Virus record (IMG/VR): IMGVR_UViG_2563366972_000005
Coordinates: 1-26,528 of that record
DNA from: a virus
Taxonomy: Duplodnaviria > Heunggongvirae > Uroviricota > Caudoviricetes
Strand: one strand, 5' to 3'
DNA: 26,528 bases
Shown here: one piece after another, positions 1 through 15,595 of the stretch
How positions within the stretch are numbered: the stretch's first letter is position 1
Layout: every line of letters begins with the position of its first letter
Notes under the pieces: generated by a model
Told to the model about the DNA's origin: nothing
Database searches by the model: none
The model's input: the letters and a program-made list of their open reading frames with translations, nothing else
Made by a program: the position numbers and the translations under genes

Positions 1-1020
1 CTACTTACTGACCACAAGCGGCAAATCCAGTGTTGGCGTGATTTTGGTTTTACGATCGTAAATCAACACCTGATTTTCTGTTTTGTGTCCACTGAAAATT
101 TGTTTGTCGCGACTGCTGCCTTCGTAATCTGAAATCCCTTTGGCTTTTATGTCATGGAAGTTGCACCCAAACGGAACGCCGGCTTTTTGCTCGGCTGCAC
201 GTTTAGCCTGATTCCACCAGTTGTTCAGCGTCTTGGCTATTACCTTCCCGCCTTTGGTTGTGTTGATCACATACTCGCATGTGCCGGAAGATACATTTCG
301 GGCTAACTGGATCGCCGTACGTAATCGCGGAGACCATTCCTTGATTTGTTTAGTGCCGGTCTTGTTTTGCTCAATGTAAATCCCTTTATCCATAATATCC
401 TGCCATTTCAGCTCGAGTACATCACCGAGCCTTGCCGCACAAAGATAGGATATCTCCATTGCAATACGTAACTGTGGAATTGCTTCCGCATATATTGCAG
501 CATACTGTTCATCGGTGATGTAAACAGTACGGGCTTTAAGTGTGAATTTTCTGACTCCTTTGCATGGATTATTTTTCACATACCCACGCTCATATCCCCA
601 TCCGTATACACGGCTCAGACTTGCCAGTTCATGGTTTGCCTGGGTCTTGCTCTCAAGTCCTCGCTTATCCATGAAAATTCTTACCTGTTCAATTTTTACA
701 TTATCAGTAAGCACTTTTCCGAATACTGCCAACAATGCCCTTTGATGTTGCCGATAATCTTTTTGGGTTCGGGGGGCCAGTTCTGTAAATGCAGGGGAGT
801 CCATAAACATGTGCCATAATTTAGCTACTGTCATTATGTTGTGGAGTTTTGCTTTTTCCAGCTCATAATTTTGCCAGACTTTAGCTACGCTGGTTTCCCG
901 CACTCTTCCGAGCCCTATAGTTCTTGTGCTTCCTTCGGGTTTCCATACGTAACTGTAACCATTCGATCTAACACGTGGTGGCAGTGCATTATCTTTTTTG
1001 TTTTTTCTTGGTCTTCCCAT
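1..1020 (-). CDS. int: Phage integrase, tyrosine recombinase family
   Basis: 339 aa ORF with basic N-terminus (MGRPRKNKK...) and C-terminal R...H..R...Y-type motifs (ARLGDVLELKWQDI, FHDIKAKG, GHKTENQVLIYDRK); overlaps the xis-like ORF as in lambdoid int-xis pairs. Stop codon sits at window position 1-3. Confidence 0.88.
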   Translation of the reverse strand: MGRPRKNKKDNALPPRVRSNGYSYVWKPEGSTRTIGLGRVRETSVAKVWQNYELEKAKLHNIMTVAKLWHMFMDSPAFTELAPRTQKDYRQHQRALLAVFGKVLTDNVKIEQVRIFMDKRGLESKTQANHELASLSRVYGWGYERGYVKNNPCKGVRKFTLKARTVYITDEQYAAIYAEAIPQLRIAMEISYLCAARLGDVLELKWQDIMDKGIYIEQNKTGTKQIKEWSPRLRTAIQLARNVSSGTCEYVINTTKGGKVIAKTLNNWWNQAKRAAEQKAGVPFGCNFHDIKAKGISDYEGSSRDKQIFSGHKTENQVLIYDRKTKITPTLDLPLVVSK

Positions 1021-1306: not shown

Positions 1307-3790
1307 TTAAAAATCAACCGGATTCGGGATCAGTTTTTGTATCGTGGCTGTAACGTATTTTGCCTGGTGACGGGCATCATCCAGCGCATTGTGGCGCACG
1401 CCTTCAAATGGAATAACTGTTCTGGCATCAAAGTCGATTGTTTTTCCCAGCTCAACGATTGTGCGTACATCGCGATCGTTGTAGTAGCGCCACGGGCAGG
1501 GGATGTCCAGACGTTCGTATGAGGTGCGCAAAATTGCGTTATCGAAAGTTGCACCATTACCCCATACCTGAACGAATTTTTCATCTGAGTATTCGTTGAT
1601 GAACTCCCGAAACCGCGAAAGGGCATCCTTCAGTTTTACCTGGTCTGTTAAAATGGCAGCTCTGGCTTCACTGGACTGCTTCAGCCACCATTCGATGGTT
1701 CCACCGTCAGGAACAGCCCCTGTATTCATTGCGTCAGTCAGACTGATAACGATATAAAATACTGGCCCGATTTCCCCTGTTTGTGGGTCGAAGAAAACCG
1801 CACCAATAACCACGATGGGCGCATTGGTGTTGGTTCCCATTGTTTCAAGGTCGATCATCAGGTGATACCACACTCTGCTGGTGGATGTGATAACGTGATG
1901 ACCGTTCACCGCAATTAAGGGATCTGCCGTCTCGCCAGTTTCATTATCGCTGGCGTGGTCCTGAGCGCTGCCAGCATTCTCCTTGTGTGGATGTTCAGCG
2001 CCTTCCATTTCCTTCGGATCATTTTCCTGAACTTCAACCTGATTCTCTTCATCGAATGTTTCCTGGTATGTTGCGTCGCCCATCACCGCGCCACAATCAG
2101 GGCAGTTGCCGTCGCCGGTCTGACCGCAGGCGGTGCAGACTTTTTCCGCTTCCTGTTGCGCTACTGGCTCAGGTTGTTTCGTTTCTGGCTCGTTTTGTAA
2201 CGCATTTGGGCTGTTTTGTTCCGCTTTCTGGTCGTTCTGTTCCGTTTCTTGCTGGTTCTGATTCACTGAATCGCGGGTTTCAATCCCCTTCACCCATTTC
2301 GGATCATTCGGGTCGCTAATCCCTGCAACAAATTCACCACGTGATACAGCAAGCAACTGATTGGCGTCAGGCTGGCTGATATTGGCTGCCTGCATAATTT
2401 TGTTTACTTCGTCAGCGGTAACTTTTACCGGCTCCGGTTGTGCGGTCGTGTCAGATGCACCAGTATTTTGTTGTGAACCTGAGTATGTACCGTTTTTGCG
2501 GGCAAAATATTCTTCTTTCGTGATTTCAGTAGCCCCTGTAGCCAACGCCTTATTCAGACCAGAAAGTTTGTTTGCACGACCATATTTTTCGCCATCCTTA
2601 TCGGTGAAGAGGAAGTAGAACGGCCCCTCACGCTCTACAGATGGTTCAGTTTCCAGCGCGCTTTCATTTTTTTGGGTATCAGATACTTCAGTTTCCACTG
2701 CGTCAGTTTCTGGTACTGGCGACGAGAGAGTATTAGTTGTGCCCTGATTTGTTCCTTCGTCATCTTCAAACACGCCCTTTGTAGCCAGGTATTCAGTGAT
2801 GTATTTGTTCAGTGCCATGGGATCTTTGTGAATGTCGATCGGACGTTCACGGACAAGGCCAAAAATAGTCTGGCGGCTGTAGCGAATCGCATCGGGTTGT
2901 TTGCGCATTGATGCGGAAATGCGCTTCCAGTCTTCGCGATCTTTGTCGATAACTTCATTTTTTGCCCAGCGATGGATGCTGCCGTCAATGTTTCCGGCAT
3001 TAATATCGCCAGGCCACAGAGCGTAGGCCAGTTCTTCATCCAGCGTTTTCCATGTCTGCTTGTATTCGCGACGAATGGCGGCAGTGGCGGGGTTGATTTT
3101 TCCTGCTGAGTTTTCAGTGTGCTGCCGGTTGACTCTGGCGCGGGCAAGATCAACAACAGACGTGTATTTTCCAGTCTCTTTGCGCTCTGCGTCCTGCCGT
3201 TTTTTCCAGTTACGTAATTCGGCCTGAATGTCCGGCCATTTTGCGCCAGGCTTACATTTATGTTTAACCCATCCGATAGCGAACAGTTTGCGTTCCGGAT
3301 ACATAGCGTTAATTTCTGGTGTTTTCATCAGTGCTTCAACGATATGCCCGTCGAATGTCGCCACGTCTTCCTGCAGTAACTCCTGTGCGCTAATCACCAT
3401 ATCAACGGTGATGTTTTCGCATGTACCGAACTTAACCAGGACTGCGTTCTGCACTTCAGGGGACAGCTTGTCAAAATTGACGTTCATCGGATCGGATTCT
3501 GGTTCGACCGGGACAAAAGAGGCTGACTCTTCATCCCAGCGGTTTTCCTGCATATATTCGGTATCCCATGAGTCGATAGCAGGGCGGGGCATGCCGGGTT
3601 TATCCTCGCAGACAAGAAATTTATAAGCGCAGTCCTGAGCAGCCGGATATTGCTCCAGGAATTGCCAGGTAAATTTGGCACGGGCGCGGCGTTCGTCACC
3701 GGCTTCAATGGCAGTGGCTACAGCGACTGCACCTTCTTCCTTTATTGCCTGTTCGTCCGGAATGGCGGCGCAAATAAAGACTTTACTCAT
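1307..3790 (-). CDS. Large early-region protein with C-terminal DEDDh-type 3'-5' exonuclease domain (of the kind often annotated exodeoxyribonuclease VIII in prophages)
   Basis: 827 aa ORF; C-terminal ~190 aa carry exonuclease motifs (MIDLETMG..., ...HNALDDA...); central CxxC...CxxC zinc-ribbon-like motif (CTACGQTGDGNCPDCG); acidic/Gln-rich low-complexity linker; start preceded by GAGG. Confidence 0.8.
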   Translation of the reverse strand: MSKVFICAAIPDEQAIKEEGAVAVATAIEAGDERRARAKFTWQFLEQYPAAQDCAYKFLVCEDKPGMPRPAIDSWDTEYMQENRWDEESASFVPVEPESDPMNVNFDKLSPEVQNAVLVKFGTCENITVDMVISAQELLQEDVATFDGHIVEALMKTPEINAMYPERKLFAIGWVKHKCKPGAKWPDIQAELRNWKKRQDAERKETGKYTSVVDLARARVNRQHTENSAGKINPATAAIRREYKQTWKTLDEELAYALWPGDINAGNIDGSIHRWAKNEVIDKDREDWKRISASMRKQPDAIRYSRQTIFGLVRERPIDIHKDPMALNKYITEYLATKGVFEDDEGTNQGTTNTLSSPVPETDAVETEVSDTQKNESALETEPSVEREGPFYFLFTDKDGEKYGRANKLSGLNKALATGATEITKEEYFARKNGTYSGSQQNTGASDTTAQPEPVKVTADEVNKIMQAANISQPDANQLLAVSRGEFVAGISDPNDPKWVKGIETRDSVNQNQQETEQNDQKAEQNSPNALQNEPETKQPEPVAQQEAEKVCTACGQTGDGNCPDCGAVMGDATYQETFDEENQVEVQENDPKEMEGAEHPHKENAGSAQDHASDNETGETADPLIAVNGHHVITSTSRVWYHLMIDLETMGTNTNAPIVVIGAVFFDPQTGEIGPVFYIVISLTDAMNTGAVPDGGTIEWWLKQSSEARAAILTDQVKLKDALSRFREFINEYSDEKFVQVWGNGATFDNAILRTSYERLDIPCPWRYYNDRDVRTIVELGKTIDFDARTVIPFEGVRHNALDDARHQAKYVTATIQKLIPNPVDF

Positions 3791-3883: not shown

Positions 3884-4075
3884 TTAAAGTCCTGCCGGTA
3901 TTTCGTTATTATTAGTGTGAGTAGCTTTATCTACCGGATAACAGTTACCGGGAATTTTTTGTTCTGCTGCGGCAGCCATGCATTCTTTCATTGAACCGTA
4001 TAAGCCAGTCACCAGCTCAAGAGATTCGCCGGAAACAAGATAAACTGTCAGAACGAGTGCAAATGTTGTATTCAT
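3884..4075 (-). CDS. Small hypothetical protein with hydrophobic N-terminus (signal-peptide-like)
   Basis: 63 aa ORF, stop/start abutting neighbouring ORFs in the leftward operon. Confidence 0.45.
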   Translation of the reverse strand: MNTTFALVLTVYLVSGESLELVTGLYGSMKECMAAAAEQKIPGNCYPVDKATHTNNNEIPAGL

Positions 4076-4356
4076 TGTTTATATCCTTTTAGCAGCAGGT
4101 CCAGACGAGCCAGCATTGAAGGAATGCATACTTCATTTAACAGGTCATGCTCGAGTTTTCTCTGCTTAATGGCGTCTTCAATAAATGTTTTGTCTCCAGT
4201 GATAACGCCAATTTCGAAACGAAGTTCAGACGTACTGGCATTGCATGATAACTTTTCCATTATCGCGTCCTCAACAATGAATTTTGTGATGCGGTGCCTG
4301 GTGCCTCCAGGTGACGTTAACCAGTTAACAATTAACGCCGGATACAGAGAACCCAC
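4072..4356 (-). CDS. Kil-like small protein (possible host cell-division inhibitor); likely true start is the ATG at 4260 (62 aa)
   Basis: Motif FEIGVITGDKTFIEDAI resembles the lambda Kil core as I remember it; internal ATG at 4260 is preceded by GAGGA with 7 nt spacing; the long ORF begins with GTG. Confidence 0.4.
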   Translation of the reverse strand: MGSLYPALIVNWLTSPGGTRHRITKFIVEDAIMEKLSCNASTSELRFEIGVITGDKTFIEDAIKQRKLEHDLLNEVCIPSMLARLDLLLKGYKQ

Positions 4357-4834
4357 CCATAAGAACCAATACGGAAGTCAACTGGCCTTTTTAACTGTTC
4401 CGCGTGCGCTGAGCCGCATTCACCGCATCACAAAATTCACTTTAAAAAGGGCGGGTATCACAAGGGAAAACAAAAAACGGATACCCGCCAAAAGGTAATC
4501 AACATGGGTTGTTGCAGCGGGGTTGTCACTTAAGCGTATGGTCAACCTGACAACCTGGTGTCCTCAACGGGGAAGGAATAACCCCGCCATACTTACCGCC
4601 GCGCCATTTCGCGGATTGCCACAACCGGAAGCGCACGGTCGACGAAAATTTAACGACAGGCTATCTATGAACCAGCTACCTCGCCGTGCGCTTTCGCGTT
4701 ATGGTCTGACTTTTCATGGAAATATCCTTTCAGTAAACTGTCAGTGCCGGATGCTCACCCGTGTCCGGCGCACGCACTCCACCTCACCCGTGGAGAACTC
4801 CTTAATTACCAACCTTAGCTTCGTTGGTTAGCTA

Positions 4835-5053
4835 TTAACGCGGGTATGTAATCATTCTGGCAATGCTTAATGCCGCTGCTTTTTCCAGCCTGGTGATATC
4901 CTGCTCCAGAGCGGACAGATTTTCAGCCTGCTTAGCCCTGGCTTCATTGGCCCATTTCAGATCCTGCGCTGCATTAATTTTCTGGCGCATCCACTCATAA
5001 AGTTCATCATCGGTATAGTCTGGCGCGATGATGACGGGTTCTCGTTTCTGCAT
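4835..5053 (-). CDS. Hypothetical early-left protein
   Basis: 72 aa ORF with GAGGAA Shine-Dalgarno 6 nt upstream of ATG; co-oriented with the early-left operon. Confidence 0.5.
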   Translation of the reverse strand: MQKREPVIIAPDYTDDELYEWMRQKINAAQDLKWANEARAKQAENLSALEQDITRLEKAAALSIARMITYPR

Positions 5054-5659: not shown

Positions 5660-6298
5660 TTAAATATCTTGTTGAATTTTAAAGCATACGCCCAATATGC
5701 AAGATAGATCATCCAGCATAATTGAAGGGTAGCGAGGATTCGTGGGGACTAAAAGAATATCCGGCCCTTCTATCTCCAGTTTACGAATGACAGGTGTTGT
5801 GGTCCCTTTGGGTAAGGCAAGGACAATATTTCCTGGTTGTACGGTTCGATCGGGATCAACAAAAACTGTTGAACCATTTGGGATGGAAACTCCCCCACCA
5901 GATGTTGACATACTGTCACTCTCTAGAACAACTGCAAAGGTATTGGCCGGGATTTCTCCGACAAGCTGCACACAAGAGGTTATTGAGGAATTTTTCATAT
6001 AATCACTCCAGCTTGCTGCCTGCTGAAGTGATAGTAGCGGAACCGTTTTTATCGGCGGTAAAGATAGATCAAGCGAATCACCTGTATTTAACTCTCCTCC
6101 ATTAAGAAGCCAATTTTCGTTTACTTTCAATATCTTTGCCAGTGAACTTATGTAACGCGAGGACGGCGCTCCTCCACCGTTCATCCATTGACTTACGGAG
6201 CCTTTTGATGCGCCAGTGGCATTGACAAGGTCTTTGCCTTTCAGGTTTAGCGCATGCATACGTTGGGTTATGCGTTCAGATATTGTTTGCTTGCTCAT
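5660..6298 (-). CDS. CI-like repressor (N-terminal HTH plus C-terminal S24/LexA-like autopeptidase domain)
   Basis: 212 aa; N-terminal HTH-like segment (RMHALNLKGKDLVNATGASKGSVSQW) and C-terminal S24-like segment; divergently oriented from the cro-like gene. Confidence 0.88.
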   Translation of the reverse strand: MSKQTISERITQRMHALNLKGKDLVNATGASKGSVSQWMNGGGAPSSRYISSLAKILKVNENWLLNGGELNTGDSLDLSLPPIKTVPLLSLQQAASWSDYMKNSSITSCVQLVGEIPANTFAVVLESDSMSTSGGGVSIPNGSTVFVDPDRTVQPGNIVLALPKGTTTPVIRKLEIEGPDILLVPTNPRYPSIMLDDLSCILGVCFKIQQDI

Positions 6299-11154: not shown

Positions 11155-11346
11155 GCGAAAACGGTTTGCTGTAACGGCAGAGTTAAGTAGAATTGCTGCG
11201 GGTGCTTGAGGCTATCTGCCTCGGGCATGAACACCAACGGCAGATAGATAAAAGCCCCACCCGACTATAAATCGAAGTGAGGCCCCTATATGCTCGTCAC
11301 ATATAGATTGCCTCTTACGGACCGAAAGGTCAAGGAGAAGCAGGCT

Positions 11347-11502
11347 ATGAAGCAGCAAAAGGCGATGTTAATCGCCCTGATCGTCATCTGTTTAACCGTC
11401 ATAGTGACGGCACTGGTAACGAGGAAAGACCTCTGCGAGGTACGAATCCGAACCGGCCAGACGGAGGTCGCTGTCTTCACAGCTTACGAACCTGAGGAGT
11501 AA
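11347..11502 (+). CDS. hok: Hok/Gef-family type I toxin (small membrane-depolarising peptide)
   Basis: 51 aa MKQQKAMLIALIVICLTVIVTALVTRKDLCEVRIRTGQTEVAVFTAYEPEE; close match to the Hok signature (...LTRKSLCEIR...REVAAFMAYE...); single TM helix; highly structured upstream leader. Confidence 0.85.
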   Translation: MKQQKAMLIALIVICLTVIVTALVTRKDLCEVRIRTGQTEVAVFTAYEPEE

Positions 11503-15285: not shown

Positions 15286-15361
15286 GGCCCTTTAGCTCAG
15301 TGGTGAGAGCGAGCGACTCATAATCGCCAGGTCGCTGGTTCAAATCCAGCAAGGGCCACCA
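15286..15361 (+). tRNA. tRNA-Ile2 (anticodon CAU, lysidine-type, reads AUA), ileX-like
   Basis: Cloverleaf folded by hand: acceptor GGCCCTT/AAGGGCC, anticodon loop CTCATAA, T-loop TTCAAAT, encoded CCA; near-identical to E. coli tRNA-Ile2. Confidence 0.88.
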
Positions 15362-15362
15362 A

Positions 15363-15439
15363 CCGCCACTAGCTCATCAGGAAAGAGCGTCAACCCTTTA
15401 AGTTGAGAGTGCGAGGTTCGAGTCCCCGGTGGCGGTCCA
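15363..15439 (+). tRNA. Noncanonical tRNA-like gene (anticodon loop CCTTTAA: UUU at 34-36 but C at position 33; A.C mismatch in T-stem)
   Basis: Acceptor CCGCCAC/GTGGCGG, U8, D-arm GCTC/GAGC, T-loop TTCGAGT, encoded CCA; anticodon stem TCAAC/GTTGA. Confidence 0.55.
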
Positions 15440-15441
15440 GT

Positions 15442-15517
<76 letters not shown>

Positions 15518-15520
15518 TAT

Positions 15521-15595
<75 letters not shown>

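Follow-up and report, generated by a model that had tools for sequence, protein, structure and literature searches.

A candidate small-RNA variant in the DicF position of an untranslated prophage leader between ydfC and dicB

DicF, a prophage-encoded small RNA familiar from textbooks, blocks cell division, rewires metabolism and controls virulence in enterohemorrhagic Escherichia coli (EHEC). Here, we analyzed the region between ydfC and dicB, in which DicF resides in E. coli K-12, in a stretch of 26,528 nucleotides from a virus of the Caudoviricetes (IMG/VR record IMGVR_UViG_2563366972_000005, positions 1 to 26,528; referred to as the window). We consider it probable that positions 4261-4834 on the minus strand represent the untranslated RNA leader from ydfC to dicB within the early-left operon of a Qin-type lambdoid prophage; this degree of confidence refers to the reading as a whole, i.e., a dicBF-type leader, a small RNA produced by termination and cutting, and read-through to dicB. 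Operon architecture and the logic of RNA processing are known, and the small-RNA variant in the DicF slot is new. Judging from the sequence, the slot is occupied by a different, undescribed small-RNA hairpin, and at least ten interchangeable hairpin alleles exist at this position. The leader is composed of the following parts, in the order of transcription:

4808-4828, minus strand: small hairpin after the ydfC stop codon, ACCAAC/GUUGGU, 6 bp with a 9-nt loop (sequence and minimum-free-energy fold)
4626-4806, minus strand: module A, conserved untranslated leader with several hairpins (95-98% column identity in 46 distinct operons)
4511-4625 (115 nt), minus strand: module B, conserved structured RNA with a four-way junction (covariation and fold)
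4490-4510, minus strand: A/U-rich single-stranded linker ACAACCCAUGUUGAUUACCUUUU, predicted 5' cut site (position matches the 5'-end stretch of K-12 DicF)
4444-4489, minus strand: putative small-RNA body and intrinsic terminator (10-bp stem by inverted-repeat search; fold; aligned to K-12 dicF)
4268-4448, minus strand: module D, long hairpin with branched interior (inverted repeat; fold; 46 operons)

The limits of the leader are set by the adjoining genes. The Pfam DicB model (PF05358, E = 1e-37) spans residues 1-62 of 62 of the ATG-start open reading frame (ORF) 4072-4260, and the entry 4072-4356 in the ORF list (94 aa, GTG start) is an extension of this dicB ORF. The untranslated stretch therefore runs over 574 nt in minus sense, from 4261 to 4834. 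A preliminary description made from the letters alone had placed a non-coding gap of about 480 bp here, of which the non-coding character was upheld and the size was not. Its assignment to the early-left operon agrees with the repressor-proximal gene order as determined by Pfam:

5660-6298, minus strand: S24/LexA-type repressor (Pfam), first in transcription order
between repressor and ydfC, minus strand: DUF1391 (YdfA-like) ORF (Pfam)
4835-5053, minus strand: ydfC coding sequence, 5' flank of the leader (72-aa ORF, annotated as 'protein YdfC' in matching RefSeq E. coli DNA; intact in 43 of 45 relatives)
4072-4260, minus strand: dicB coding sequence, 3' flank of the leader (Pfam DicB PF05358; intact in 45 of 45 relatives)
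3884-4075, minus strand: DUF1482 (YdfD-like) ORF (Pfam), after dicB
1307-3790, minus strand: exonuclease (Pfam), after the YdfD-like ORF
1-1020, minus strand: integrase (Pfam), last in minus-strand order

By its gene content and order, the operon ydfA-ydfC-[RNA leader]-dicB-ydfD under a LexA/S24-type repressor is of the dicBF early-left type of Qin prophages. A 601-nt query around the gap found matches in 4735 of the 5426 complete E. coli genomes, where the matched DNA carries a ydfC annotation, and the window aligned nearly base for base with ydfC-dicF-dicB of K-12 Qin except over the DicF body. In K-12, dicF is known to lie in a long untranslated region of the operon (PMC5069750). As K-12 Qin and thousands of E. 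coli prophages display the same layout, nothing is missing from the window. The comparison with related prophages, which had been proposed as a means to find the missing gene, thus spoke against both a lost gene and the suggested deletion scar. The apparent lack of sieB, N or ral resulted from a misreading of the prophage type, as these genes are not expected in an operon of the Qin/dicBF type. Also the lambda-type nut site (boxA, boxB hairpin and N gene), which had been considered for the gap, was rejected: no boxA (CGCUCUUA-like, at most one mismatch) occurred inside 4261-4834, the window-wide count being equal to chance, and no N-type ORF was present among the early-left ORFs scanned with Pfam.

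To assess coding capacity, 46 distinct ydfC..dicB stretches were collected, the candidate ORFs were projected onto the alignment, and the window was compared with the 45 others. Within the relatives' stretches, ydfC was intact in 43 and dicB in all 45. The ORFs of the gap were distributed as follows:

4420-4545, minus strand: 41-aa gap ORF, intact in 0 of 45 relatives
4526-4636, minus strand: 36-aa gap ORF, intact in 23 of 45 relatives
4523-4831, plus strand: 102-aa gap ORF, intact in 20 of 45 relatives
4262-4498, plus strand: part of a 124-aa ORF, intact in 0 of 45 relatives

No conserved small ORF, the feature named beforehand as decisive against a non-coding gap, was found in the gap by comparison of the 45 relatives. 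The gap might still encode one or more small proteins, e.g., from the 41-aa or 36-aa minus-strand ORFs or from the 102-aa plus-strand ORF. ORFs of 36-124 aa do exist mechanically in this interval, a TAAGGAG motif is located at about 4796-4802 on the minus strand, and some phage records annotate 'hypothetical proteins' on homologous DNA. However, the gap ORFs are frameshifted or stopped in 22-45 of the 45 relatives, single-nucleotide indels occur between relatives, and substitutions preserve base pairs and not codons. In addition, the two largest plus-strand gap ORFs had no Pfam match (the smaller gap ORFs were outside that scan). We therefore regard coding by the gap as hardly credible. Over the 46 operons, the gap is conserved at 95-100% per 25-nt bin, compared to 48-83% for the dicB coding sequence; this conservation is interrupted by two hypervariable cassettes at about 4454-4528 and 4354-4403. 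Taken as RNA, the whole gap folds better than shuffled sequences (z = -4.6).

The DicF slot contains a hairpin with the arms GGCGGGTATC (4450-4459) and GATACCCGCC (= GATACCCGC C; 4480-4489), which are 100% complementary over 10 bp and enclose a U-rich loop of 20 nt. On the minus strand the hairpin is followed by CUUUUUAAAG, i.e., CUUUUU, with the U-run at 4444-4448. Its RNA fold of -20 kcal/mol (z = -4.5) was reached by none of 200 shuffles, and the hairpin is thus beyond chance. The 9-bp hairpin placed preliminarily at about 4420-4470 is accordingly real, but has to be corrected in length and position; the T-run noted behind it on the minus strand is present. Similarly, the idea that the gap contains a terminator or a small RNA was supported insofar as a terminator-type hairpin exists, which is best read as a small RNA. 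Upstream of the stem, the A/U-rich linker and a U-rich stretch are visible. For K-12 DicF, the secondary sources used for its processing describe a 3' end generated by termination or by RNase III and a 5' end generated by RNase E (PMC5069750, PMC9438474). By analogy, the 5' cut of the window RNA would fall within the linker at 4490-4510.

The hairpin shares a number of features with DicF of K-12 Qin (RF00039). It is situated in the same operon in the slot between ydfC and dicB, the conserved flanks on either side align with K-12 base for base, and both have a U-rich stretch, a GGCGG...CCGCC hairpin, the CUUUUUAAAG tail and the same long hairpin of RNase III type downstream. However, the body in the window lacks the UUUCUGGUGACG 5' seed and has another loop, and it represents a minority allele (158 versus 3975 genomes). 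The Rfam DicF model yielded no match in the window at the gathering threshold (48 bits), nor at E<=10 in a 1.1-kb search; K-12 as positive control scored 76.7 bits and other slot alleles 43.5, 34.7 and 34.1 bits. Pairing with ftsZ was compared by RNAduplex, a crude measure as it includes no accessibility term. The full-length calculation against a 120-nt ftsZ segment failed to discriminate, and the 40-nt start region (-28..+12) was used instead. Here, K-12 DicF reached -30.7 kcal/mol (z = -2.6, reached by 1.4% of shuffles), while the window allele at -20.2 kcal/mol (z = 0.08) was no better than random; among the slot RNAs tested against the ftsZ start, only K-12 DicF performed better than its shuffles. 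Despite shared position, flanks and terminator design, the window hairpin was therefore rejected as DicF by both the covariance model and ftsZ pairing, and classed as a slot variant.

To determine the diversity at this position, the slot was extracted from 134 loci, anchored on the conserved flanks. The loci contained 29 distinct slot sequences of two 5' types, each of which occurs with several different terminator hairpins. The types and the abundance of the main alleles were:

slot 5' type 1, DicF type: ...AUUUUCUGGUGACGUUUGGCGG...
slot 5' type 2, window type: AACCCAUGUUGAUUACCUUUUGGCGG..., without the DicF 5' seed
canonical DicF: 6700 places in 3975 genomes (complete E. coli)
window allele: 170 places in 158 genomes (of 5426 complete E. 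coli)
bR120-type allele: 115 places in 92 genomes (complete E. coli)

O55:H7, O121 and enterotoxigenic E. coli (ETEC) strains are among those that carry the window allele. As the hairpin resides in a prophage, is not seen by the Rfam DicF model and has neither the DicF 5' seed nor ftsZ complementarity, it might represent a functionless, decayed dicF remnant of a defective prophage. However, its stem is perfect at 10 of 10 pairs, and the sub-allele L122 also retains a perfect stem despite indels in the loop, which argues against simple decay. The identical 67-nt window allele is found again in serotypes and hosts that are unrelated (82 records at >=99%), the remaining alleles are likewise perfect hairpins with U-runs, and both slot flanks are very strongly conserved. 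Decay is thus a very improbable explanation.

A published survey of dicF compared only copies that were >99% identical (PMC5069750). Canonical dicF itself is unannotated in many RefSeq E. coli records, and missing annotation therefore says nothing about novelty at this locus. In the literature covered, which did not comprise the 1990 DicF paper and the P1 genome paper so that an earlier description is possible, we found no account of the slot as an exchangeable cassette, nor any that treats module B as a distinct, covarying RNA. The small RNA proposed here resembles intra-operonic or 3'UTR-derived small RNAs such as SroC with regard to early termination and an RNase E-dependent 5' cut (PMC9438474). 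It differs in that its body can be exchanged as a cassette and is enclosed by ultra-conserved structured flanks, a design which was not found described for those RNAs in the same literature.

Immediately upstream of the linker lies module B. Its structure was read from the sequences of 91 distinct copies (alignment A2) and comprises the following elements:

4618-4625/4511-4518, minus strand: helix P1 (outer)
4610-4614/4599-4603, minus strand: helix P2
4595-4598/4556-4559, minus strand: helix P2b
4582-4586/4568-4572, minus strand: helix P3
4548-4555/4521-4528, minus strand: helix P4
4587-4592 with 4536-4541, minus strand: loop-loop pseudoknot, GUAUGG (before P3) with CCAUAC (in the P4 loop)

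In A2, 94.4% of the cells were paired, compared to 32-57% when the partners were slid by 1-3 columns, and the covariation score was reached by none of 500 shuffles. A fourth internal helix, CGGU/ACCG, was contributed by RNAalifold; in one lineage it contains a compensatory C-G, and with this helix module B becomes a four-way junction. The single-sequence fold of the window copy yielded the same junction, and junction and loop nucleotides are invariant. A second, model-based alignment of 15 representatives (A3), which was fitted to the model itself, gave 95.4% paired cells and 8 pairs changed on both sides versus 3.6 +/- 1.3 in shuffles (0 of 500). In the pseudoknot, one U-A pair is replaced by C-G in phage-P1-type copies and, independently, in one Qin-type copy (L157); the same pair is again U-A in the phage-P1-type variant L229 and U.G in the Salmonella copy L228. 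Scans with patterns that demanded a purine at pseudoknot position 2 (no hits) or a purine in P4 (one sequence with a plain mismatch) were unproductive, indicating that the module B diversity within reach is limited to few lineages. No family in Rfam 15 matched module B. A tRNA or tRNA-like gene was rejected, as ARAGORN found no gene in 4200-4900 and the Rfam tRNA model no match there, while four true tRNAs were found at 15286-15592. No locus, the window included, carried more than one module B, and the early-right operon had none.

When phage genomes were searched, parts of the gap proved to occur independently of each other. A 119-nt segment that borders the slot on its upstream side is present on its own in Stx2c phages, Ayreon and others (91% identity), and P1-like phages contain the same segment at 76% identity. 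In 225 of 227 scorable copies, module B is followed by a hairpin and T-run 22-43 nt after helix P4, with at least 10 different hairpins in this place. The arrangement in other elements is:

Stx2c phage: S24 repressor, its terminator, promoter, 285 nt, module B, hairpin/T-run, about 140 nt, first ORF
phage Ayreon (infects K-12): layout as in the Stx2c phage; the early-left operon contains one more annotated terminator, and N is not annotated
Salmonella element: module B flanked by the repressor and rdgC; its hairpin allele has a length of 85 nt
phage P1: module B starts about 40 nt after the C1-controlled ban promoters (Pban) and precedes tRNAs, tciABC and ban

The promoter of the Stx2c phage (TTGACA-16-CATAAT) matches the sigma-70 consensus at 11 of 12 positions. 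The positions in all four elements indicate that module B is a leader element of repressor-controlled early operons. The 'dicF-like region' of phage P1 (AF234173, 68472-68573) is the same element; its annotation extends over the 3' half of module B plus the hairpin and T-run behind it. However, its similarity lies in module B and not in the DicF body, and its hairpin (GCCCAUCUUCGGGUGGGC) is another slot allele. The P1 record gives only this label for the feature, and the similarity had thus been noticed before. Two further sequences were observed in this context. The Stx2c-phage leader (L135, about 2293-2304) contains, upstream of module B, TCTGGTGACGTT, which is identical to the 5' seed of K-12 DicF, and module D of the window (about 4307-4319, minus strand) contains AACGUCACC, which is complementary to this seed. 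Pairing in cis of the DicF seed with the downstream leader is possible. Near the dicB region, C4 antisense RNA and isrK are found side by side (Rfam, 60-80 bits; L001 2717-2902 and L135 38-226, both minus strand), a pair that represents a P1/P7 immI-like module.

Between the slot and dicB, the leader forms the long hairpin of module D. Its core consists of perfect 19-nt arms (4421-4439/4278-4296) within a stem of about 28 bp, which encloses three smaller hairpins and a variable apex (4354-4403). The fold has -72.5 kcal/mol, and its 65 pairs are 99.4% canonical in the 46 operons, the changes being wobble-compatible and one of them compensatory. The base of the stem overlaps both the terminator U-run and the dicB Shine-Dalgarno sequence GAGGA (4268-4272). 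In K-12, RNase III processes the region 3' of DicF, which gives rise to an alternative 72-nt DicF end (PMC5069750, PMC9438474); module D is the predicted counterpart of this region. The Rfam scan that had been proposed as a check returned within the gap, even at E<=10, only a sub-threshold match to STnc100 (RF02076; 33.7 bits at 4283-4437, minus strand, model positions 21-154 of 206). As the gathering score is 47, module D is not a member of STnc100 by the Rfam criterion; K-12, P1 and other module D copies similarly scored 31-37 bits. Apart from this partial likeness, STnc100/PasD loci belong to the late (Q/lysis) prophage region (bioRxiv 10.64898/2026.05.13.724894), whereas module D is located in the dicB leader. 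In phage P1 (L134, 3842-3961), the module D arms follow module B only after 1.3 kb and directly precede tciA, which encodes a TerB-like protein of putative cell-division or tellurite function. The leader modules therefore recombine independently. The window, bR120 and STEC308 share one version of the apex cassette (4354-4403) and the K-12 version is shorter; the apex version appears to be linked to the small-RNA allele type. In locus L001, the long hairpin and dicB are separated by an inserted Rha-family gene.

Taken as a whole, the leader would work as follows. Minus-strand transcripts from the repressor-proximal promoter would cross ydfA-ydfC, module A, module B, the linker and the GC-rich hairpin with its five U. 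Some polymerases would stop at this leaky hairpin, and a cut in the A/U-rich linker would then produce a small RNA of about 55 nt, which sits in the DicF slot with a non-DicF body and, as this body is different, presumably has targets different from those of DicF. Polymerases reading through would transcribe module D, an RNase III substrate of the K-12 type, and express dicB; since the base of module D covers the dicB ribosome-binding site, processing would be coupled to dicB expression. Module B may serve in cis as a scaffold that fixes folding and the 5' cut, or aid read-through of the leaky terminator. Several observations weigh against this reading. A 20-nt loop and only five U are atypical and probably make a leaky terminator, and a simple terminator scan picked up only a sub-hairpin at the slot. 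The slot loop varies by indels among sub-alleles, an unusual behavior for a conserved seed. Module B taken by itself has weak thermodynamic support (z = -1.2), its covariation comes from few independent lineages (Qin-type, Stx2c/Salmonella-type and phage-P1-type copies plus single variants), and the outer helix P1 is not recognizable in phage-P1-type copies. Finally, for the window allele everything beyond the DNA, including termination efficiency, RNA ends, the RNase E cut, Hfq dependence, action in trans and targets, is extrapolated from K-12 DicF.

With respect to module B, two other roles have to be weighed against that of a scaffold. It may primarily be a processive antiterminator RNA acting in cis like put of HK022 and HK639, where the nascent RNA modifies the polymerase so that it reads through the adjacent hairpin and later terminators of an operon without N; the slot hairpin would then mainly be a terminator or checkpoint and any small RNA a by-product. 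Module B and the put RNAs are alike as cis RNAs of about 115-125 nt that occupy leaders of repressor-controlled early operons before the terminators, in phages without evident N. The position between early promoter and terminators was found in the Stx2c phage, Ayreon and P1, and HK639 has an annotated putL-like antiterminator in the equivalent place. Moreover, a terminator follows within about 40 nt in nearly all scorable copies, the window operon has neither an N-type ORF nor boxA, and without such a function Rho would have access to the long untranslated leaders (574-595 nt). However, put RNAs are described as two stem-loops and not as a four-way junction. Neither a junction nor a pseudoknot is given for them in PMC9378689. 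Sequence comparison showed no similarity: a blastn comparison of the gap with the early region of HK022 gave chance hits only, and the module B covariance model scored <=8 bits on HK022 and on HK639 including the annotated putL (inverted repeats in HK022, searched for putL/putR, were not informative). In addition, module B has its terminator immediately after it and in the window lies mid-operon, downstream of the repressor-proximal promoter region by about 1 kb, after ydfA-C and just before the hairpin terminator, and the single copy per locus with none in the early-right operon also speaks against this role. As K-12 DicF is made partly by termination at the hairpin (PMC5069750), suppression of termination cannot be complete. 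Antitermination by module B thus remains putative, and as its primary function we consider it possible, though on balance unlikely.

Alternatively, module B and the hairpin may form a riboswitch-like attenuator, in which junction and pseudoknot sense a ligand or factor and the hairpin is the 'expression platform'. A conserved aptamer directly followed by a freely evolving intrinsic terminator would look similar, with invariant junction and loop nucleotides and a 5' leader position as in P1, the Stx2c phage and Ayreon, and in the whole-gap fold the upstream CCAUAAC can rival the 3' strand of helix P1 for GGUUGUGG. However, inspection by eye revealed no conserved alternative pairing or switching helix between module B and the 5' arms of the terminators, no Rfam riboswitch matched, and there is no association with metabolic genes, the downstream genes being dicB, recombination genes, tRNAs and ban. 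Such a sensor is improbable. We accordingly rank a cis scaffold for folding and processing, possibly with a role in read-through, before a put-like antiterminator, and the latter before a sensing attenuator. In a broader sense, module B may belong to an uncharacterised class of cis-regulatory phage RNAs of N-less lambdoid and P1-like phages, which decides the fate of the polymerase at the next terminator and also provides a fixed 5' platform for an exchangeable small-RNA cassette, DicF being only its best-known cargo. Module B would then fold co-transcriptionally, with the junction locked by the pseudoknot, and lead to put-like antitermination or sensed attenuation. We propose this tentatively and think it rather unlikely in its full extent.

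The DicF position thus appears as a cassette slot for differing hairpin RNAs with probably differing targets, the flanks of which are better conserved than the adjoining protein gene. If the variants are active, O55:H7, O121, ETEC and other carriers have an unrecognised regulator. Module B is common to P1 and functional temperate phages, where it is placed right at the beginning of the early operons, and is a candidate for how N-less early operons handle terminators and long untranslated leaders.

The 7-bp inverted repeat described preliminarily at 4809-4830 is present just after the ydfC stop, but has only 6 perfect pairs (4808-4813/4823-4828), which is below the 7-nt reporting minimum and by itself not beyond chance. 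In STEC308 (L003, 3529-4147), a 630-bp insertion with two hypothetical genes is located exactly in the loop of this hairpin, suggesting that 4808-4828 marks a gene-insertion point. Module A contains a 13-nt inverted repeat (4626-4638/4684-4696), and a part of it (about 4733-4805) was found alone in phage phi367; with a single-sequence fold of z = -0.5, its structure is not established. In the whole-gap fold, CCAUAAC of module A (4699-4706) pairs with GGUUGUGG (4618-4625), the 5' strand of the outer helix of module B, and this predicted pairing is a possible competing structure to that helix. In two deletion variants (L009 1634-1760 and L213 7283-7410), modules A and B are fused, with a repeated CGCGAAA at the joint; both variants have lost the 5' strand of the outer helix and kept the rest of module B and the slot. 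Elsewhere in the window, a sok antitoxin RNA (Rfam RF01794, 103.9 bits) at 11200-11349 on the plus strand points to a hok/sok-type toxin-antitoxin locus in the prophage. The four tRNA genes at 15286-15592 are in tandem on the plus strand (Rfam tRNA, 45-74 bits); tandem tRNAs often precede the late region or toxin genes in lambdoid prophages.

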